Positions 1,908 through 64,000 of a DNA stretch of 64,000 bases are shown one piece after another; positions within the stretch are counted from its first letter, which is position 1, and the number at the start of each line of letters is the position of its first letter. The stretch lies in IMG/VR virus record IMGVR_UViG_3300025150_000002, positions 64,001 through 128,000 of that record. One strand, written 5' to 3'. Made by a program: the position numbers and the translations under genes. The stretch is from a virus (Duplodnaviria; Caudoviricetes). The notes beneath the pieces were generated by a model that saw nothing but the letters and a program-made list of their open reading frames with translations, was not told the origin of the DNA and did no database searches.

Positions 1908-4850
1908 ATGGCTACTACCAAGCAAGTACTTCGTCTTCAGAGTGACCAGACACTAGACGATCCACAAATCGCCACGCGTATACGGCTCAAGGATTTGGCC
2001 GCTACGAGAGCTATCCAGCTTGTTTGGATCGAGCCGGCGGCGGCCGACCGGGACATCACGTTCAAGGACCCTGGCGCGAACGACTCAGTGGTCTACGAGA
2101 ACCTGGCCCAGCCTCTCAACAACAAGACGCTCGGCACCCCGACCATCACGGACTTCACCGACGCCCAGCACACCCACGCTAGCGCGGCGCAGGGTGGGAC
2201 GGTGGCCCATTCCGACATTGGCACTCCAGACGCCGCAGATGACCACCAGCAGTACGCTAGGCTGGCGGGCCGCGTTGGTGGGCAAGTCCTGATCGGCGGT
2301 AGTGCGGCCTCGGAGAACCTGTCCCTGCAGTCGACTTCTGACGCCGCGCGCGGCGACATCATCGCGATCGACGACATCGTGATGGGAACCGGTAAGGAGG
2401 TCACTGGGCTTCCCGCGACACCCAGCGGGCCAACCGCTGCTGCGTCAAAGGCTTATGTCGACCTGGCCATCTCCGGCGGAGCTTCGTGGAAGGAAGTTCT
2501 CCTCACATCGGACCAGCTAGACAACACGAACGATGGAATAGCCCAAGGTGTCGCGTTCTACCTCGTCAACACCGCCCAGATCGGTGACTCGATCACACTA
2601 GACGACGATATCGCAACCGAATCGTGGGTGTTCGCGGGCGTCTCAGCACCTAACCAGCCGGCAGTCGGTGCAAGCGCTCTTGACTCGATGACCGACCTGG
2701 CGGCCCGTATCAATGCCGACTCCGCCACCTGGGCCGCAAGCCTCTTCACCGGCACACTACAGGGGATCAACTCTGCGACCGGTGATGTGGTCGTTATCTA
2801 CAGGCGAATTCCGGCTGCCGCTACTATGGACCGTGTGTTTGGCGTTTTCGCCACCCCGGCCGATGCTCAGTACGTCGACTTCGGCGGCGCGTCTGACTAC
2901 CGTAGCAGCATCAGCGCCAACCTGCCGGCTGTGGATCCCACAACCGCCAACTTCGGCATCGGTCGTGTTACCTCTGGTTTGACGCCGAACGAGGCACACC
3001 TGGTTCGGGCCGAGGACAGCGCCTACATCTGGAACGATGACGCTGGGGTTTGGCAGCTCAGCGCTGGTGCTGTGGCGCTGGCCACGTCTGGATCGGGCGG
3101 CGGTGTTATCGGCCAGTCGACCTTTGACTCCGACAAGGGTCTTTTGGTCGCCGGAGGTGTGGCCGAGGTCCGAGTCGATAACTCGACAATCACTTTCACG
3201 GCTGGTCAGCTCTCTGTTGCTGGTGGAGCTGTTCCCTTTGGAACCTCCGGTTCTGGTGGTGCTATCGCCGGTAAGGTCACAGCAGACTCTGATAAGGGAC
3301 TGGAGATCACTGGCGGTCCAGCAAACGCCATCTTGGCTACCAAGGTGGACGGCATCACGATCACACACAACCTAAGCGGTGAGCTCTCGGCGAGCGGCTC
3401 TCCGCTCGCTCCCACCGGAAGTGTTTCTCACGGCGTACTCCTGACCCGTGACATTGGTGGCGTCGCGGCCCCTACTGCTACCTTCATCTCCACAGACATT
3501 CCGGTTCAAGACTACATCGACGGTTCTACAACCGGTCAGTTGTTCGATTTCGTTGTGCCAACCGACTACGACGGCGGTGATATCGAGCTCCTAGCCTCGT
3601 ATCAGATGACCACCGCCTTCGCCGGCGCCATCGTACTGGAGACCTACGCCAAGATCGTCAAGGCGTCTACCGGATCTGTAGACACCGTTACTTTCCCGCC
3701 CGTCTCCGCGCTTCTGAGCCCTCCTGTGACGACGGACCTAACTCGTAGCATCATCAAGACACTACCAAACCCGTCTGGCGCCAATTACCAGCGCGGCGAC
3801 ACCATCCAGTTCTATGTCAAGCGACTGGGCGCCGACGGCAGTGATGCCCACACCGGCGATTGGCGCGTCGCCGCTTTCGCCTACCGCTATACAGGCCAAG
3901 TCAGCACACGGCTCATGGAGCCGGTTTCAGACATCTTTACGCCGGTTACCGGTGTCCCGTCCCCGTCTATTGACCTCTTCTCCACTGACATCCCAGTGCT
4001 CACCTTCTCCGACGGCACGGACCAGGCTACAGCAGCCCTATTCGTCGTCCCGGACAACTGGGATGGTATTAGCGACGCATTGTTTCGGGTTCAGTACGCG
4101 CTCGACACAGCAGCGGGCGGAACGGTCCGCCTCAACACCTTGGTCAAAGTAGCGGACGTTGCTGGGGGCGCGGTTGTTGTGCTACCAGCCATCGACTTCG
4201 ACCGCACAGTAACAGCCGACACCGACCCGCACAGGACCGAGATCATCAGGTCAGTGCCTGGCGCCTCGATGACGCCTGGTAGCGTCATCCAGATAATCAT
4301 CACACGTGACACGTCGGTCGGTGGTAACGCAGCAGCTGGGTTCCAGCTCATCAACGGCACACTGGCCTTTGGTGTCACGCCTGTCTCCGGGATCTCCGCG
4401 ACCGGCGAGTATTACCTGGACGACCCGGTCGTTGGAAACCTCTCCGGAACCGTGTTCGCAGACTGGCAGTATCCTGCCTACGGAGGTGACTTCGAGCAGT
4501 TCTTCCGCATGCGCTCTACGGCTGCGGCCGGCGTTGTCCACGTCGCATTTGCGGGCCGCCTGGGAACAAGCCAGGCGACCATCGACCAGATAGCCGTGAA
4601 CGTCAAAGGTGTCGACACAGGCACAGTTCAGTACCAGATTCACATCTACGCAGAGGGCTCTGGCGCTGTCCCCGTCTATTCCTCAGTAGCTGCGACACCT
4701 CCTGGGGCGTCGACCTTGGTAGCGATCACTGGAACCTCGCTGAGCGCACAGCCGACCGTCGGTAAGCGGTTCTTCGTAGTCGTTGAGGCTACTGCGATGG
4801 CTAACGGCGAAGAAGTCCTGGTGAGCAAGCCTCTGGTCAGGGTGTCGTAA
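1908..4850 (+). CDS. Large virion structural / tail fibre-like protein (980 aa)
   Basis: GAGG SD upstream. Fibre-type motifs (HTHASAA, DDHQQY). Internal duplications SGSGG..DSDKGL x2 and STDIPV x2. Ala/Gly/Thr-rich. Confidence 0.75.
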   Translation: MATTKQVLRLQSDQTLDDPQIATRIRLKDLAATRAIQLVWIEPAAADRDITFKDPGANDSVVYENLAQPLNNKTLGTPTITDFTDAQHTHASAAQGGTVAHSDIGTPDAADDHQQYARLAGRVGGQVLIGGSAASENLSLQSTSDAARGDIIAIDDIVMGTGKEVTGLPATPSGPTAAASKAYVDLAISGGASWKEVLLTSDQLDNTNDGIAQGVAFYLVNTAQIGDSITLDDDIATESWVFAGVSAPNQPAVGASALDSMTDLAARINADSATWAASLFTGTLQGINSATGDVVVIYRRIPAAATMDRVFGVFATPADAQYVDFGGASDYRSSISANLPAVDPTTANFGIGRVTSGLTPNEAHLVRAEDSAYIWNDDAGVWQLSAGAVALATSGSGGGVIGQSTFDSDKGLLVAGGVAEVRVDNSTITFTAGQLSVAGGAVPFGTSGSGGAIAGKVTADSDKGLEITGGPANAILATKVDGITITHNLSGELSASGSPLAPTGSVSHGVLLTRDIGGVAAPTATFISTDIPVQDYIDGSTTGQLFDFVVPTDYDGGDIELLASYQMTTAFAGAIVLETYAKIVKASTGSVDTVTFPPVSALLSPPVTTDLTRSIIKTLPNPSGANYQRGDTIQFYVKRLGADGSDAHTGDWRVAAFAYRYTGQVSTRLMEPVSDIFTPVTGVPSPSIDLFSTDIPVLTFSDGTDQATAALFVVPDNWDGISDALFRVQYALDTAAGGTVRLNTLVKVADVAGGAVVVLPAIDFDRTVTADTDPHRTEIIRSVPGASMTPGSVIQIIITRDTSVGGNAAAGFQLINGTLAFGVTPVSGISATGEYYLDDPVVGNLSGTVFADWQYPAYGGDFEQFFRMRSTAAAGVVHVAFAGRLGTSQATIDQIAVNVKGVDTGTVQYQIHIYAEGSGAVPVYSSVAATPPGASTLVAITGTSLSAQPTVGKRFFVVVEATAMANGEEVLVSKPLVRVS

Positions 4851-4899
4851 CACGCCCCCTTGTATAGTGTTGCGTTGGTAGTCATACTTGAAACCAGGT

Positions 4900-5379
4900 A
4901 TGACTCATAACGAACTAGTCAAGATCGCCAAGAAATGGCTTATCAAGGCCAGAGCATGCGTCGTCGTTCTTACAGAGACTCAGGCCCAAAGTGGGGAAAT
5001 CCCTGATGTCATCGGATGGCGGGGTCAACTCTCGATTCTGATTGAGTGCAAAACATCGGTGACCGACTTCCGCCGCGATCTGTCGAAGTGGTATCGAAAT
5101 TCAGGTCCGGGAATAGGTCAGCATCGGTATTTCATGGCGCCGAAGGGTGTTATTCCCCAAGATGAAGTTCCCCCGGGATGGGGACTCCTTGAGGTATCTG
5201 GCGATACGGTCAAGACCACCAGGAAGGTCGACCTTCTCTACCTGGACGAGCATGTCTCGGCGGCCGAAGTTCCACTACTTGTGGCGGCCCTGAGGCGCAC
5301 GTCGATGCGCGCATCAACAGCTAGAAACCACAAAAAAAAGGGGTATAGTCGGTCTCAGCAAAGGAGCTCATCGAAATGA
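4900..5379 (+). CDS. PD-(D/E)xK restriction-endonuclease-like protein (MmcB-like)
   Basis: Motifs EIPDVIGW and LIECKTS, followed by RYFMAPKG...WGLLEV. Confidence 0.6.
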   Translation: MTHNELVKIAKKWLIKARACVVVLTETQAQSGEIPDVIGWRGQLSILIECKTSVTDFRRDLSKWYRNSGPGIGQHRYFMAPKGVIPQDEVPPGWGLLEVSGDTVKTTRKVDLLYLDEHVSAAEVPLLVAALRRTSMRASTARNHKKKGYSRSQQRSSSK

Positions 5380-60654: not shown

Positions 60655-61506
60655 GTGAGCGTGACCGACTCCAAACCACGTAAGCACAGGCTTTTCATTG
60701 TTGGCGGCAAGGGCAGGAACGTGCCGCCGTGGCTCTCTGCAGCCTTCGACTACGAACAGTTCGAACAGGATCACGCGAAGACCAGAACGCTAGAGCCTAG
60801 CGTCCGACCAGACGCGGTGGTTGTTCTTAGCTCGTGGGTGGGTCATGAACACTTCTACGGGGCGCGAGACCTCGCGGGGAGGCTGAGCATCCCCATGATC
60901 CTCTCACCTGGAGGGTGGTCTACATCACTAAAGGCGGCTGCTGACCTTGGCATCGAATGGTTCATCAAGGACATCGAGCGGGCGCGCACATCCGGCGGAC
61001 TACCAACCCCAACGGTCGAGGCGCTCGACGAGTTCGTCGACAACGCCTGGCGTGAGGCCTACAATCGAGAGTGGGCAGCCCGCGAGGCTCTCACCCAGCG
61101 TTACGCTAAGGAGCGTAAGCGATCAGAGCGCCTTGAGGCCGAGCTCACCAAGCTCAAGGTGACGGAGGCAGCCGCCCAACGTGTCATAGCCGAGATCCGC
61201 GCAGCGGCGGCCCTCCAGCGAGCTGAGATGGAGCGGCACAACGAAGAGGTCCAGCATCGCAGTGCCCGAGTAGCGGACGCGCTGGCCGAGCACATGAACA
61301 CTATGAAGGAGCTATTCGAGTCGGTCGACGAGACTCACGCAATGCTAGTCAAAACTACATCACATGTGCACGGCGTGAGAAACGACGCTCAGAGGAAGAT
61401 GGATTTCCTGAGGGCCGCACTCAAGGTCGCCGAAGAGGGCACCCCGTCTCGCATCGTAGCGACAGAGTCTCCTATATCTGCTTCCAATTTGGAGATGGGC
61501 TCGTAG
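60655..61506 (+). CDS. DUF2325-like domain plus long coiled coil
   Basis: GGAGG SD. LFIVGG..DAVVVLSSWVGH..IPMI followed by a heptad-rich helix. Confidence 0.55.
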   Translation: MSVTDSKPRKHRLFIVGGKGRNVPPWLSAAFDYEQFEQDHAKTRTLEPSVRPDAVVVLSSWVGHEHFYGARDLAGRLSIPMILSPGGWSTSLKAAADLGIEWFIKDIERARTSGGLPTPTVEALDEFVDNAWREAYNREWAAREALTQRYAKERKRSERLEAELTKLKVTEAAAQRVIAEIRAAAALQRAEMERHNEEVQHRSARVADALAEHMNTMKELFESVDETHAMLVKTTSHVHGVRNDAQRKMDFLRAALKVAEEGTPSRIVATESPISASNLEMGS

Positions 61507-61518
61507 AATACGAGCCCA

Positions 61519-62241
61519 GTGTCCGACCCCGGCGAACCTCCATACCTTCCTATCAGCTCAGCTATCTACTGCGGTGACGCTTTCAGGCTCATCAAGCAGG
61601 TGGAGCCAGGGTCTGTACGTCTGCTCTTAACGGACCCACCATACGAAATCAGCCAGGACAACAACCTACACACGATGGGCCGCCGGGGTATCGACTTCGG
61701 AACATGGGACCACGTGTTCGATCAGACCGGGTGGCTTGAGGACGCGGTACGCACCTTGATGAAGGGCGGGTCGTTGGTGGTCTTCAACGACTGGAAACTG
61801 CTCGGAATAATTGCGGCACACCTGCAGTCCCTCGGGATGGTGGTGAAGCGCCAACTTATATGGCGCAAATGTAATCCCATGCCACGCAACATCTTACGCG
61901 TTCCGGTTCAGGCTAGCGAGTTCGCTCTGTGGGCCGTGAAGCCAAAGGGTAGGTGGGTCTTCCACAAACGCCCAGACCGACCCTACGAGCGTGGCGAGTT
62001 CGACTACCCTGTAGTTCGTGGGTCGCCGCACCCGACGAAGAAACCTGATGGCCTGTTCCAAGACATCATTGAGATGTTCAGTGATGAGGGGGACCTTGTT
62101 CTGGACCCGTTCGCGGGTTCGGGCACAACGGCCGTCGCAGCTCAGCGCACGAGGAGACGCCACATCAGCTTCGAAAACGACCCTAACTACTACGACCTTG
62201 CTGTAGCAGCACTTGAAAAAGTGATTCCAGTCAAGCGGTAA
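61519..62241 (+). CDS. DNA methyltransferase (N4/N6, beta class)
   Basis: TDPPY precedes HPTKKP and VLDPFAGSGTT. Confidence 0.9.
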   Translation: MSDPGEPPYLPISSAIYCGDAFRLIKQVEPGSVRLLLTDPPYEISQDNNLHTMGRRGIDFGTWDHVFDQTGWLEDAVRTLMKGGSLVVFNDWKLLGIIAAHLQSLGMVVKRQLIWRKCNPMPRNILRVPVQASEFALWAVKPKGRWVFHKRPDRPYERGEFDYPVVRGSPHPTKKPDGLFQDIIEMFSDEGDLVLDPFAGSGTTAVAAQRTRRRHISFENDPNYYDLAVAALEKVIPVKR

Positions 62242-62267
62242 ACAGAGAATATGCAGGAGTGGTGACT

Positions 62268-62378
62268 GTGAGACACGGAGACCGACGGAAGACTCTTACT
62301 GCTCCAGAGTACGCAGCCTGGTCGGCCATGCGATCACGCTGTAGTGGCGTTGGTATTGGCGCATGGGAAGACGCATGA
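62268..62378 (+). pseudogene. Truncated N-terminus of a homing endonuclease
   Basis: RHG..APEYAAWSAMRSRC..GIGAW* matches the HG..EYxxWxxMxxRC..GI pattern of phage HNH nucleases. Stops after 36 aa. Confidence 0.6.
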
Positions 62379-63004
62379 TTCCCCCAGCAGCACACCTCAC
62401 CGGGGGCACCACCGGTAAGTTCATCGTCGTCGAAGGCAACATCGGGCCTGTTGACGACGGTATGGCGTCAATGTTACCTTCTCGTCTTCGGAGGTGGCAG
62501 ATGTCGCAAAGGCAGCGAAAGCCTTGGACCGAGGACCGTAAGCGCCAAGCGGTCGACCTCTACGAGACTGGCGTCTCAATGCATGCCGTGGCCAGAGCCA
62601 TGGTCACGTCGGTGCGCCATGTTCATCGTGTGCTGAACGAGCGCGGTGTGGTCAGGTCGAAGTCAGACCTTTACCGAGGAGACGGAAACCCGGCCTGGAA
62701 AGACGGTAGGCGCGTCGTTGGCGGCTATGTCTACCTCTACAGACCCGAGAGTCCGATGGCGACAGAGGCCGGCTACGTGGCTGAGCATCGGCTAGTCGTA
62801 TCTGAGTCTGTTGGTCGTCCTCTCAAGCGTGGTGAGGTCGTGCATCACAAGAATGGCGACAAGGCAGATAACCGACTGGAGAACTTGGAACTCTTTGCGT
62901 CGAACGCCGAGCATCTGCGTCACGAGCTAACGGGCCGGTGCCCGGAATGGACCGAAGACGGGAAGCGGCGCCTCCGAGAGGCGCGCAACAGAGGTCGGGG
63001 GTAG
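62375..63004 (+). CDS. HNH endonuclease fused in frame to an orphan deoxynucleoside kinase N-terminus; internal SD and ATG at 62501
   Basis: KFIVVEGNIG, then HTH, then YVAEHRLV..VHHKNGDKADNRLENL. Confidence 0.8.
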   Translation: MIPPAAHLTGGTTGKFIVVEGNIGPVDDGMASMLPSRLRRWQMSQRQRKPWTEDRKRQAVDLYETGVSMHAVARAMVTSVRHVHRVLNERGVVRSKSDLYRGDGNPAWKDGRRVVGGYVYLYRPESPMATEAGYVAEHRLVVSESVGRPLKRGEVVHHKNGDKADNRLENLELFASNAEHLRHELTGRCPEWTEDGKRRLREARNRGRG

Positions 63005-63009
63005 CAGCG

Positions 63010-63711
63010 ATGCCGATTGACATACCCGCTGCTTGCTCACATCTGAGCGACGCGCAGCGAGGCGCTTTCATAGTCGTAGAAGGGAATGTGGGGGTTGGCA
63101 AAAGCTCGTTCAGCGAATCACTGACTCGGCTTCGCGGCGAAGGTGCGCAGCTGTTCCCCGAGCCAGTTGATCGGCCCGCCTTCCGTGTGCTCCTCGACCG
63201 CTACTACAAAGAACCCGCACGCTGGGGATTCACGTTCCAGATGTACGCGCTCAAGGAGCGGTTCAAGCAGCACACCCTCGCAGCGGAACTTGTAGCCCAC
63301 GGGATCGACGTAGTCCAGGACAGGAGTATCTACGCTGACGGCTGCTTCGGTCGCCTCGTCCACCTCGACAAGAATATGACCGTAGAGGAGTGGGACATCT
63401 ACGCTGAGACCTTCGGCGCGCTCAAGCGCTTTCTGCGCTACCCCGATCTACTTGTCTACCTACGGGCCGATCCGGAGATTTGCCATGATCGAACCAAACG
63501 GCGAGGACGCAAGGAGGAGTCGGGTGTCCCTCTCGATTACCTGAGACGCCTGCACGACGAACACGAAGCCCTGGTGGATGCCATGAGTCGCTTCACTCGT
63601 GTAGTCACCTTCGACTGGAACGAGTTCCAGGAGGCTGATCTGGTCAATGGGAAAATCGACGAGGCGCTCAACGAAGAAGTGCGGTTCATGCGTGATTTCA
63701 CGCGACTGTAA
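63010..63711 (+). CDS. Deoxynucleoside kinase
   Basis: P-loop EGNVGVGKS, FPEPV, FQMYALKER, DRSIYAD, LVYLRA..KRRGRKEE..YLRRLH. Confidence 0.88.
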   Translation: MPIDIPAACSHLSDAQRGAFIVVEGNVGVGKSSFSESLTRLRGEGAQLFPEPVDRPAFRVLLDRYYKEPARWGFTFQMYALKERFKQHTLAAELVAHGIDVVQDRSIYADGCFGRLVHLDKNMTVEEWDIYAETFGALKRFLRYPDLLVYLRADPEICHDRTKRRGRKEESGVPLDYLRRLHDEHEALVDAMSRFTRVVTFDWNEFQEADLVNGKIDEALNEEVRFMRDFTRL

Positions 63712-63725
63712 GGCTGGAGGCACTG

Positions 63726-64000
63726 ATGAACATCTTCTTACGTGGGGACCGGGCAGTCCCCATAATCATCGCCAAGAGGCTTATCCGAAAAGAACCGAAG
63801 ATCACCAAAACCCGCCGATTCGTCGGGTTTAGGCAGGGGTTCGGTACCTTGGTCTACAAAGCGATCGAGGTCTTACAGGAGTGCTTCTGGGACGAGGAGC
63901 AGGATGTCGAGGACCTGGGCGAGAGCGAGGTTGTCCATTACGCCATCGACGTAATGGATGATCCCGGCTCAGGTGCTCCGGAGCTCGTGGTCACCAAACT
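63726..64000 (+). CDS. Hypothetical protein, 3'-truncated by the window edge
   Basis: GGAGG SD, ATG at 63726, frame open to the end of the window. Confidence 0.65.
   Translation, partial: MNIFLRGDRAVPIIIAKRLIRKEPKITKTRRFVGFRQGFGTLVYKAIEVLQECFWDEEQDVEDLGESEVVHYAIDVMDDPGSGAPELVVTK

Follow-up and report, generated by a model that had tools for sequence, protein, structure and literature searches.

A probable intron-less homing-endonuclease cassette with a replacement 5′ end in a deoxynucleoside kinase gene of a jumbo phage

Introduction

It is usually assumed that a homing endonuclease can reside inside a conserved gene, without destroying it, only by way of an intron or an intein. The DNA analysed here, a 64,000-nt stretch from a groundwater jumbo phage (referred to as the window, to which all unassigned coordinates belong), raises the question of whether there is a third solution. 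In this stretch a deoxynucleoside kinase (dNK) gene has two beginnings, one on either side of an HNH endonuclease gene. The original prediction regarded the arrangement as a layered invasion of the kinase P-loop by homing endonucleases, accompanied by a recoded replacement N-terminus. Here we present evidence that the locus probably represents such a third solution, in which the nuclease brings along a replacement gene end, in this case a 5′ end with its translation signals.

Results

The kinase locus is preceded by an N6/N4 DNA methyltransferase gene (61519–62241; Pfam N6_N4_Mtase, E = 1.4e-36) whose position as upstream neighbor is shared with the relative L006; this gene and all window features described below are on the plus strand. 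In the nuclease-free relatives L006 and L102, the methyltransferase stop codon overlaps the kinase start codon. In the window, a stranded native kinase 5′ end of 24 codons (MIPPAAHLTGGTTGKFIVVEGNIG; 62375–62446), termed the stub, breaks off halfway through the Walker A loop (GNIG/VGKS). It is followed by the left end of the insert (62447–62500), which comprises a linker and the HNH leader, has no stop codon in the frame of the stub, and contains the motif CAATGTTACC that is common to the HNH leaders of the relatives L090 and L091. A GGAGG sequence (62490–62494) is located 6 nt 5′ of the ATG (62501) of a free-standing homing-type endonuclease gene coding for 167 amino acids (62501–63004). Five nucleotides past its stop codon, a replacement kinase 5′ end of 28 codons (MPIDIPAACSHLSDAQRGAFIVVEGNVG; 63010–63093), termed the surrogate, begins with a start codon of its own and leads into the dNK gene body (63094–63711; Pfam dNK, E = 7.7e-43). 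As the surrogate counts 28 codons, the inserted block extends from 62447 to 63093 (647 nt) and lies exactly between kinase codons G24 and V25, inside the Walker A loop.

The complete kinase gene (63010–63711) begins with MPIDIPAACSHLSDAQRGAFIVVEGNVGVGKS. Its match to the Pfam dNK profile (PF01712) spans profile positions 1–200 of 203, its Walker A motif GNVGVGKS is intact (GxxGxGK[ST]), and the product is presumably functional with its cassette-derived first 28 codons. As had been predicted, the stub runs free of stop codons into the HNH ORF ending at 63004, the HNH gene has a GGAGG of its own, and the two 27-nt cores encoding FIVVEGN(I/V)G differ at six of 27 bases; the observation of a layered insertion with a duplicated kinase start is confirmed. 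An assembly artefact can be ruled out by identical contigs from several samples and by bridged junctions. Specifically, the locus is base-identical in the eight contigs that were examined out of 19 with the fusion ORF, with the exception of a single SNP that lies outside the cassette in one of the eight, and both junctions are bridged by independent contigs. Neither a sigma-70-like promoter nor an intrinsic terminator was detected between 61400 and 64000, using a consensus that may not be that of the host, which fits co-transcription of the genes.

Comparison with nuclease-free kinase alleles, which had been suggested as a check, revealed stub-type N-termini joined directly to the gene body. 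Such empty alleles are present in P0002, P0003/L092, L006, L101, L102, L104 and others. The window stub aligns colinearly with the kinase N-termini (MIPPAxHL..GKFIVVEGNIG-VGKS) of about 20 relatives that lack the nuclease, among them P0002 and P0003 with MIPPAxHL..GKFIVVEGNIGVGKSSFSESL, and stub plus body make up the native gene, VGKSSFSESLTRLRG being identical in P0003. At the DNA level the stub is about 83% identical to L092, which is similar to the value for the gene body. The order of displaced fragment, nuclease and complete dNK gene recurs in L090 and L091. The colinearity of the stub with some 20 nuclease-free N-termini and the recurrence of the stub–nuclease–full gene order in two other lineages argue against a chance duplication. 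Thus, there is a presence/absence polymorphism at one defined site, with three occupied alleles (window, L089/L090 and L091) and about 20 empty ones. In all three diverged lineages the stub ends at the same codon: it is continued as GNIG/PVDD in the window and as GNIG/YHLF in L090/L089, and in L091 the GNIG is followed directly by the stop codon of an antisense HNH gene. The HNH gene is also antisense in L090 and is in the sense orientation in the window.

In P0020, a stretch of 609 nt without a called gene separates the methyltransferase gene from a kinase gene called from MVEGNVG; this contig may carry a decayed fourth occupied allele. All close relatives come from metagenomic collections. 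In a phage collection, a DNA query covering 61500–64000 gave no match, and a protein search retrieved only distant kinases with less than 36% identity.

The in-frame run from the stub into the HNH gene is real in the window and is not conserved, the HNH gene being antisense in L090 and L091. Since continuity of this kind is expected by chance with a probability of about 0.15–0.2 (one of three frames, 18 stop-free codons) and is absent from L090 and L091, we do not regard it as a designed feature.

Excision of 62447–63093 would restore the native frame and protein exactly, and genes for nucleotide metabolism are classic intron hosts in phages. Both points fit the view that a self-splicing intron with an HNH gene makes up the 647-nt block, that EGNIG is spliced to VGKS, and that the second kinase start is incidental. 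Searches against Rfam, however, gave no intron match up to E = 10 for the window region or up to E = 1 for L090 and L091. Sequence outside the HNH ORF amounts to only 54 + 89 nt in the window, and the left side measures 0–2 nt in L090 and L091, leaving no space for a ribozyme core. An antisense HNH gene in two of the three alleles is equally at odds with an intron. The last base of the presumed exon is G, C and T and that of the presumed intron G, T and G in the three alleles; because these boundary bases vary, the exon-terminal U and the intron-terminal G required of a group I intron are not conserved, and no ribozyme core was recognized by Rfam. Moreover, the FIVVEGNVG of the surrogate is kept as protein with synonymous differences in the three alleles, as is typical of translated sequence. 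We therefore regard an intron as extremely improbable, and the predicted intron-free nature of the insertion is upheld by the Rfam result, the antisense alleles and the lack of room for a ribozyme.

An intein was considered as well and rejected. It would call for an uninterrupted insert that starts with Cys or Ser and ends with His-Asn ahead of Cys, Ser or Thr. The insert in question starts with Pro, it is interrupted by a stop codon at 63002–63004 and a new start, and in two alleles the nuclease is antisense.

The region between the methyltransferase gene and the stub contains traces of earlier events. A small ORF whose stop codon overlaps the stub start (ATGA) encodes 39 amino acids from GTG 62259 or 36 from GTG 62268, of which the latter is better spaced from AGGAG at 62254–62258. 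Its product is 58% identical over 33 amino acids to the sequence encoded by L104 338–436 (tblastn, E = 2e-11), that is, to the N-terminus of a full-length ORF (L104 332–787) that matches phrog_3377, annotated as HNH endonuclease, with E = 6.6e-52. Both proteins end with WED[AV] and a stop codon over the kinase ATG, and about 330 nt of L104 are absent from the window. The ORF itself gives weak PHROG nuclease matches (E = 0.03–0.2). The stretch 62259–62378 is hence read as what remains, after an internal deletion, of a free-standing nuclease gene (TAPEY..W..M..RC family) that is older than the HNH insertion and unrelated to it, which agrees with the prediction of an ATGA-coupled nuclease remnant. 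As this older relic lies upstream of the HNH insertion, the invasion is layered, as had been proposed. Further upstream, a 17-nt vestige (ATGCAGGAGTGGTGA; MQEW followed by a stop codon; 62249–62265) aligns with L104 315–331 at 76% identity, a weak match of very short length, and in the pairwise alignment with L104 it is contiguous with the next block. The vestige might be the end of an L104-type N-terminal fragment of a kinase paralogue, which comprises 61 amino acids and ends with PMQEF and a stop codon.

Relics of this second, bacterial-type kinase paralogue are found in several relatives (L104 146–328, Pfam dNK E = 5.5e-13; L092 3900–3926; L095 1595–1621), and L097 contains a C-terminal fragment of it (4600–5004). 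Given such relics at the locus, and given that kinase fragments can arise in other ways, the stub might have decayed from a kinase paralogue or from a tandem duplication of the usual kind, with the HNH gene having landed in the spacer and the P-loop position being unrelated to cleavage. The stub, however, is of the type of the main gene (MIPPAxHL) and not of the paralogue (FVVVSGLIG), and it ends with the identical codon in three diverged lineages, always at the boundary of the HNH unit. In addition, it is the stub and the gene body, not the surrogate tail, that match the nearest nuclease-free alleles. A decayed duplication is in our opinion very unlikely.

The HNH ORF matches Pfam HNH_3 (E = 7.9e-11, above the curated cut-off), more weakly HTH_23 (E = 0.0024), and PHROG HNH endonuclease families with E values down to 9e-22. 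The HTH domain is located at about 62528–62638 and the HNH_3 domain at about 62786–62896, the catalytic stretch being VVHHKNGDKADNRLENLEL. Orthologues occupy the identical kinase site in L090 (60% identity) and L091 (69% identity), and the motif HHxN..DN..NLE (VVHHKNG..DNR..NLEL) is kept in all three proteins. With a dN/dS value of 0.19 against L090 and an intact catalytic motif, the HNH gene is, as judged from sequence, under purifying selection. A kinase gene adjoins the HNH gene in none of 80 loci carrying relatives of the window HNH. When the same 80 loci were screened for duplicated flanking peptides, a very noisy comparison owing to off-frame translations of GC-rich DNA, the positive controls and L032 stood out, and L032 proved to be an unrelated tandem paralogue pair.

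The N-terminal tail of the surrogate is unlike that of any of 77 kinase homologues. Over the first 19 residues it departs from all native alleles both in sequence and in length, and the tail matches L092 at a random level (21 of 90 bases). The surrogates of the window and of L090 are about 60% identical, and on inspection both tails contain one additional residue ahead of the HL motif when compared with native alleles. The first codons of the L090 surrogate (GYNLE) seemed to resemble the 3′ end of the L006 methyltransferase gene (GYQENPM), a similarity that was rejected because these codons lie on the reverse complement of the HNH leader common to L090 and L091.

At the P-loop the window surrogate and the adjoining body carry the sequence GTA GAA GGG AAT GTG GGG GTT GGC AAA AGC (63076–63105), referred to as the V-type haplotype (GNVG). 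In a codon table of 13 alleles, all three surrogates show GGG AAT GTG GGN GTN GGN AAR AGC, and the V-type haplotype is present in nuclease-free alleles, too. The donor-type tract ends after AGC (63105), and from 63106 on the sequence again resembles L092, the nearest nuclease-free allele. Nuclease-free alleles differ among themselves at six of the 27 core bases, exactly as stub and surrogate do, and the sole change consistent between stub and surrogate is that of an Ile codon (ATH) to Val (GTG). What stood of the predicted recoding are the diverged P-loop codons and the Ile-to-Val exchange; the surrogate is not a synonymous copy, as its tail differs from every native one. Because the V-type haplotype also occurs in nuclease-free alleles, "recoding" is better understood as reliance on, or persistence of, an allele that already existed and is presumably resistant, and the replacement end is better read as a diverged allele of presumed resistance.

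Synonymous-site statistics, based on 11 alleles and overlapping scan windows, set the P-loop apart. Codon identity at synonymous sites is 0.68 among the four full-length V-type alleles (two surrogates and two nuclease-free ones; rank 179 of 183 scan windows), and 0.26, the next to lowest value of the scan, between V-type and I-type (GNIG) alleles. One mosaic allele, L118, which comes from the same source metagenome as L089, has a native N-terminus. Compared with L096 (same contig as L090), L118 shows just 66% identity in the methyltransferase region, but 91% identity starting 27 nt upstream of FIVVEG and continuing beyond it, with an exact match to the surrogate over positions −6 to +48 nt. 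This looks like a conversion tract without gain of the nuclease. Alternatively, the V-type alleles could be ordinary polymorphism and L118 an ordinary recombinant with its breakpoint in a conserved motif.

In a broader version of that alternative, the cassette is a fossil whose HNH enzyme does not home or has been recruited for a phage function, and V-type alleles and L118 merely reflect ordinary recombination. Compatible with it are the zero variation among the examined copies of the window phage, the unrelated gene contexts in which other members of the HNH family are found, and the search of contigs from four runs, in which neither a cassette-free variant of this phage nor the corresponding joints were seen. 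It is opposed by the purifying selection on an HNH gene with an intact catalytic motif and by the V-type tract, whose synonymous identity stands out precisely where the insertion lies. Domestication also does not explain why the stub was retained. On balance we consider a fossil unlikely.

Discussion

Taken together, the kinase locus with good probability harbors a homing-endonuclease cassette that does without an intron and exchanges the 5′ end of the gene it targets for a version of its own. What moves would be the HNH_3 gene together with a short, diverged copy of the first kinase codons with ribosome-binding site and start codon. We propose that during co-infection the HNH enzyme would cut the P-loop DNA of cassette-free phages with the common I-type sequence. 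Repair from the cassette-bearing genome would then be guided on the left by homology to the stub and the genes ahead of it and on the right by homology to the kinase body, so that the whole cassette is copied. If both ends paired with the replacement copy instead, the P-loop alone would be converted to the V-type, which is presumed to be a cleavage-resistant version of the target. A short surrogate would suffice, because the conserved residues ahead of the cut number only nine (FIVVEGNxG) and the dNK domain does not include the N-terminal tail. We infer the cleavage site, the position of the cut and the immunity of V-type alleles from junction positions and haplotypes, and the proposed route of the cassette's first origin is likewise a deduction. 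Inversion of the HNH gene in L090 and L091, with stub end and surrogate unmoved, indicates that a single origin followed by simple homing is insufficient.

The layout is not confined to the kinase: as the original prediction of a more general strategy had implied, it recurs at another gene, the methyltransferase gene of the relative L006. It is tempting to speculate that homing without intron or intein into conserved motifs near gene starts, by means of a surrogate 5′ end, is general in phages. Together with its consequences we regard this wider reading as possible rather than probable. If it were true, the resistant haplotype would have spread to nuclease-free phages through conversion-only repair, and fast synonymous divergence of the target motif would be driven in susceptible alleles. 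Likewise, N-termini of phage proteins could be replaced permanently once the nuclease had been lost, and the nuclease unit could be exchanged or inverted inside an existing frame of stub and surrogate.

Cassettes of this kind would account for what look like gene fragments and for unusual fused ORFs called beside nuclease genes in phage annotations, and they would offer a natural explanation for chimeric phage genes with recombination boundaries in catalytic motifs. Our data further suggest that synonymous sites in conserved motifs can be shaped through conflict with selfish nucleases. Three related HNH enzymes, a likely target of 30 bp and naturally occurring candidate sensitive and resistant sequences constitute a test system that could serve to examine how such enzymes recognize their targets and drive gene conversion in uncultured jumbo phages.

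The layout described here is known from yeast and from fungal mitochondria, and accounts of it in phages are very scarce. In T4-like phages, free-standing endonucleases cut a nuclease-less relative within or near a neighboring conserved gene, as we propose for the HNH enzyme; repair co-converts flanking markers, and polymorphism at the site protects the carrier genome. Their genes lie between other genes or split a gene into two working halves, and we know of none that resides inside a gene together with a duplicated replacement gene end. Intron-less homing in T4-like phages is described for SegB, SegF, SegG and MobE (PMC2988022; PMC2330249; PMC2790892).

Closer parallels are the mobile endonuclease ORFs (mORFs) in mitochondria of Allomyces (atp6; cited within PMC3630166) and Glomus (atp6, atp9, cox2 and nad3; Beaudet et al. 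2013, PMC3630166). As in the kinase locus, a free-standing endonuclease ORF, sometimes in phase, is inserted in a protein-coding gene along with a gene-end copy of foreign origin, and the duplicate of the native end is nearer to relatives than the inserted end (PMC3630166). By contrast, mORFs concern C-terminal ends and LAGLIDADG or GIY-YIG enzymes in organelles, whereas the present locus concerns an N-terminal end and an HNH enzyme in a phage. A further difference from mORFs is the shared candidate resistant haplotype that is also present in nuclease-free alleles.

In the yeast aldolase gene FBA1, WHO elements combine an endonuclease gene with a copy of the target gene end that confers resistance (Coughlan et al. 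2020, eLife, PMC7282813). Their integration replaces the gene end, and the old end and older nuclease genes are pushed outward and decay, a model that was tested experimentally for 3′ ends in yeast (PMC7282813). Common to both systems are a displaced fragment that serves, or here would serve, as a homology arm, the absence of intron or intein splicing, and a chimeric target gene (PMC7282813). As is characteristic of WHO elements and mORFs, a complete kinase gene is found on one side of the HNH gene and a displaced fragment of the same end on the other, and the stub is closer to the alleles of relatives than is the replacement end. Unlike WHO elements, which affect the 3′ end of a eukaryotic nuclear gene and encode an intein-derived enzyme of the LAGLIDADG type, the locus described here involves the 5′ end of a phage gene and an HTH-HNH_3 protein whose gene is found in both orientations. 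Since it is a 5′ end that is replaced, a ribosome-binding site and a start codon have to come from the cassette as well.

Results

The kinase locus belongs to a 203.5-kb IMG/VR record (completeness estimate 89%; window, bases 64001–128000), and the sequencing runs bearing the phage derive from aquifer and groundwater metagenomes and one hot-spring study. On the plus strand, a DUF2325-like gene (60655–61506) and an N6/N4 DNA methyltransferase gene (61519–62241) precede a small ORF (62259 or 62268 to 62378), a 213-aa ORF comprising the stub side and an HNH nuclease (62363–63004), and the deoxynucleoside kinase (dNK) gene (63010–63711). No promoter-like or terminator-like site was found between 61400 and 64000, and the genes of this region are therefore probably co-transcribed. 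Two genes downstream of the kinase, just past the window end (L121:3827–4630, same phage), a 288-aa product shows a faint LAGLIDADG_3 match.

The stub (62375–62446) encodes MIPPAAHLTGGTTGKFIVVEGNIG and reads stop-free into the HNH protein, which matches Pfam HNH_3 (E 7.9e-11), weakly a helix-turn-helix, and many PHROG 'HNH endonuclease' families (best E 9e-22). The start codon of the HNH gene (ATG, 62501) follows GGAGG at 62490–62494 with a spacing of 6 nt. The working kinase starts at 63010 with MPIDIPAACSHLSDAQRGAFIVVEGNVGVGKS (Pfam dNK, E 7.7e-43). Thus, both the in-frame run of the stub into an HNH gene with its own GGAGG and the kinase restart with a second FIVVEGN(V)G core, as proposed in the original prediction, are borne out.

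A protein search returned 77 kinase homologues, of which the nearest nuclease-free ones, P0002 and P0003, start with MIPPAAHLLSGEVGKFIVVEGNIGVGKSSFSESLTQLRG (86% identity) and MIPPAGHLNSGEVGKFIVVEGNIGVGKSSFSESLTRLRG (85% identity). The stub is of the same type as their N-termini, and so is the window kinase from VGKSSFSESLTRLRG on, whereas the 19 residues ahead of FIVVEG in the working kinase are unlike every nuclease-free allele. Likewise, DNA identity to L092, a locus from a relative, is about 80–83% for both the stub and the kinase body (63094–63711), but at random level for the surrogate tail. Because stub and body match nuclease-free alleles and the surrogate tail does not, the inserted block is, by sequence comparison, 62447–63093 (647 nt), made up of leader, HNH gene, 5-nt spacer and the 28 codons of the surrogate start (63010–63093). 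The insertion point falls exactly on the G24/V25 codon boundary, midway through the Walker A loop (GNIG/VGKS). Haplotype comparison extends donor-type sequence 12 nt past the block (GTT GGC AAA AGC, to 63105), beyond which the window is L092-like again.

This layout is real and not an assembly artefact, because it is base-identical in the 8 contigs examined of 19 with the fusion ORF, including a 355-kb NCBI contig (one contig has a single SNP, outside the cassette), and because both junctions are spanned, with no difference, by contigs of four sequencing runs.

The closest relatives of the window HNH protein occupy the same kinase site in other phages. In L089/L090, from JGI metagenomes (HNH 60% identical), the order in kinase direction is methyltransferase gene, stub MIPPAGHLYSEGTGKFIVVEGNIG, antisense HNH gene, whose stop lies 2 nt from the last stub codon, and full kinase starting MTGYNLEIPSMASHLRDDSVGKFIVVEGNVGVGKS. 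In L091 (69% identical), stub LIPPAGHLLGDNIGSFIAVEGNIG directly abuts the antisense HNH stop codon and the kinase starts with MRDLIPDNVPPAGHLTVSTGSFIAVEGNVGVGKS. The stub hence ends at the identical codon in three diverged lineages, each time adjoining the nuclease-unit boundary. All three HNH proteins have kept the catalytic stretch, and dN/dS of the HNH gene between window and L090 is 0.19. A leader motif of the nuclease unit (CAATGTTACC) is common to the three alleles; relative to the window, the unit has the opposite orientation in L090/L091, where the reverse complement of the leader supplies GGAG ahead of the surrogate start, while stub end and surrogate stay put. The new starts of the three surrogates differ (MPID, MTGYNLE, MRDL). 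Neither nuclease nor stub is present in about 20 further kinase alleles with readable 5' regions.

An intron was considered and rejected. Rfam searches for introns were negative both for the window region (E up to 10) and for L090/L091 (E up to 1), and non-ORF room around the HNH gene amounts to only 54 + 89 nt for the window allele and 0–2 nt on the left in L090/L091. The would-be splice-site bases are not conserved across the three alleles (before the insert G, C, T; at its end G, T, G), two of which carry the nuclease in antisense orientation, and the surrogate FIVVEGNVG is kept with synonymous differences, as in translated sequence. An intein is ruled out by the stop codon and new start within the insert. 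The insertion can thus be called intron-free, as predicted.

The claim of a recoded N-terminus holds only in part. In the FIVVEGNxG cores of stub and surrogate 6 of 27 bases indeed differ, but nuclease-free alleles diverge as much (L006, from a relative, also differs from the window stub at 6 of 27), surrogate and native tails differ in both sequence and length, and the only consistent surrogate/stub difference is ATH (Ile) to GTG (Val). For these reasons we take the surrogate to be a diverged allele that is presumably resistant, rather than a copy recoded on purpose. In L091, stub and surrogate use different codons at nearly every shared residue, which fits either long divergence or survival of those cassettes in which the direct repeats have too little similarity for recombination to remove the nuclease.

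All three surrogates share the P-loop GAR GGG AAT GTG GGN GTN GGN AAR AGC. This V-type haplotype (GNVG), whose usual Ser codon is AGC and not AGT or TCG, is also carried by alleles that have a native N-terminus and no nuclease (L095/L097, L118, L093), whereas third positions vary freely in GNIG (I-type) alleles. Synonymous-codon identity was scored in 11-codon windows along the kinase gene of 11 alleles, a small sample with overlapping windows that limits these statistics: the P-loop window scored 0.68 among four full-length V-type alleles (rank 179/183; median 0.42), 0.26 between V-type and I-type alleles (next to lowest) and 0.32 among I-type alleles (seventh lowest of 179; median 0.45). By these scores the best-conserved motif of the protein, nearly invariant in its residues, ranks with the stretches of greatest silent-site divergence, except among V-type alleles, which are nearly uniform here. 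Small as the sample is, the divergence of the Walker A codons (63067–63105 and homologous codons) may reflect escape from being recognised by the nuclease.

The clearest example is L118, a nuclease-free V-type allele from the metagenome of L089. It has a native N-terminus close to that of L102 and a methyltransferase region only 66% identical to that of L096 (same contig as L090). Starting 27 nt before FIVVEG, however, and for as far as its contig extends, it is 91% identical to the L096 surrogate and body, and over –6 to +48 nt it equals the surrogate exactly, about 14 of these 54 bases differing from L102. The alignment (L118:1543–1907, L096:1810–2165) is mosaic: a short own-lineage-like patch (KELIDIRTGG..) follows the surrogate-identical P-loop tract, and the body beyond has 96% third-codon-position identity to the nuclease-bearing phage. 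Although ordinary recombination could produce such a mosaic, it fits the outcome expected if a P-loop break were repaired from a surrogate, namely conversion without nuclease gain.

Two further alleles were observed. The V-type allele L093:581–1315 (also L094, L099) has no stub or nuclease upstream and an N-terminal tail (MVLRPEDVEADPITRLEELRQSRGK..) unlike native and surrogate tails; it may be a surrogate start outliving its nuclease, or simply another lineage. On the P0020 contig, a 609-nt stretch without a called gene, possibly a decayed occupied allele, separates the methyltransferase gene from a kinase called from MVEGNVGVGKS.

The predicted layering, with a remnant of another nuclease upstream, is supported by the small ORF, whose product MVTVRHGDRRKTLTAPEYAAWSAMRSRCSGVGIGAWEDA matches L104 338–436 (58% identity, 33 residues, E 2e-11). 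The counterpart in L104, a relative's locus, is a 151-residue ORF (phrog_3377 'HNH endonuclease', E 6.6e-52) immediately upstream of the kinase start; over the kinase ATG, it ends in ..WEDV* and the window ORF in ..WEDA*. As the alignment shows the window to lack about 330 nt of the L104 gene, the small ORF is, on this comparison, an internally deleted older nuclease gene. L104 also has a 61-aa N-terminal fragment of a second, bacterial-type kinase paralogue (Pfam dNK, E 5.5e-13), and the 17 nt preceding the small ORF (ATGCAGGAGTGGTGA) match its end, a correspondence weakly supported at such a short length. Elsewhere in the same genome, outside the window, L088 (G000:C1:170755–170802) holds a full-length 220-aa nuclease (..GSPEYVSWRAMKTRCLNPNH..LERIDNNKGY..) of the TPEY..W..M..RC family to which the relic (62259–62378) belongs.

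Pieces of the paralogue flank the kinase gene of relatives (L104:146–790; L092:3900–3926, 4757–5029; L097:2951–2977, 3752–5004): upstream, an N-terminal fragment or P-loop relic (FVVVSGLIGVGKT..); downstream, a 134-aa C-terminal fragment, located in L097 behind a 283-aa HNH gene (PF01844/PF14279 in the gene annotation of the P0005 contigs). In L092 only the first 8 codons of this HNH gene (MHLTKQCR) are left, and they run into the C-terminal fragment as a fusion. Possibly, the main kinase gene itself landed within an older kinase gene.

Methyltransferase genes of relatives also carry inserts. L006:2590–4001 shows the same architecture of duplicate N-terminus (..SAIYLGDAFQLLKSVRPESVDLVLTDPP; 65% identical to window methyltransferase residues 5–41, ending at the DPPY motif), endonuclease-like ORF (2732–3298; phrog_2340, E 6e-16) and full gene restarting at 3255. 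Intein-like inserts are present in the methyltransferase genes that precede the kinase in two relatives: in L005:1–1614, within the DPFxGxGTT motif (..DPFCG/CYDSQ...VAWCGN/TGTT..), and in L097:145–2559, where a long insert begins CLSGSTRVYA and ends ..THNS.

Discussion

By analogy, we favour a present-day mechanism in which the locus works as a 5'-end mirror image of WHO elements (PMC7282813). Nuclease gene and resistant gene end would together form the mobile unit, with the stub serving as left homology arm; an I-type allele, once cleaved, would either receive the entire cassette by copying or have just its P-loop converted. Concerning origin, one reading has two steps: the nuclease unit would have been captured in either orientation directly at its own break, disrupting the gene, which illegitimate recombination would then have restored by setting a resistant allele's codons, from about codon 2 onward, behind the nuclease. 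Alternatively, the nuclease unit may have been exchanged or inverted inside an existing stub-and-surrogate frame.

T4-type intron-less homing combines a free-standing nuclease with co-conversion, and the kinase locus resembles it in both respects; unlike the kinase locus, however, it is not known to involve a duplicated gene end. Mitochondrial mobile ORFs bring along a foreign gene end, the C-terminal one (PMC3630166), and their logic, like that of WHO elements, is common to the kinase locus. A survey of phage nuclease genes at recombination boundaries (PMC10448857) makes no mention of duplicated host-gene ends, and the literature searched yielded no phage account of a nuclease with a duplicated gene end, which is weak evidence of absence. 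That the kinase locus is a real gene-end-replacing homing cassette is well supported by sequence comparison, with its nuclease specificity being predicted. As a variant of known systems the cassette is new, because it is the 5' end that is replaced, the carrier is a phage, the site is a P-loop, the nuclease occurs in both orientations and there is an apparent conversion-only footprint.
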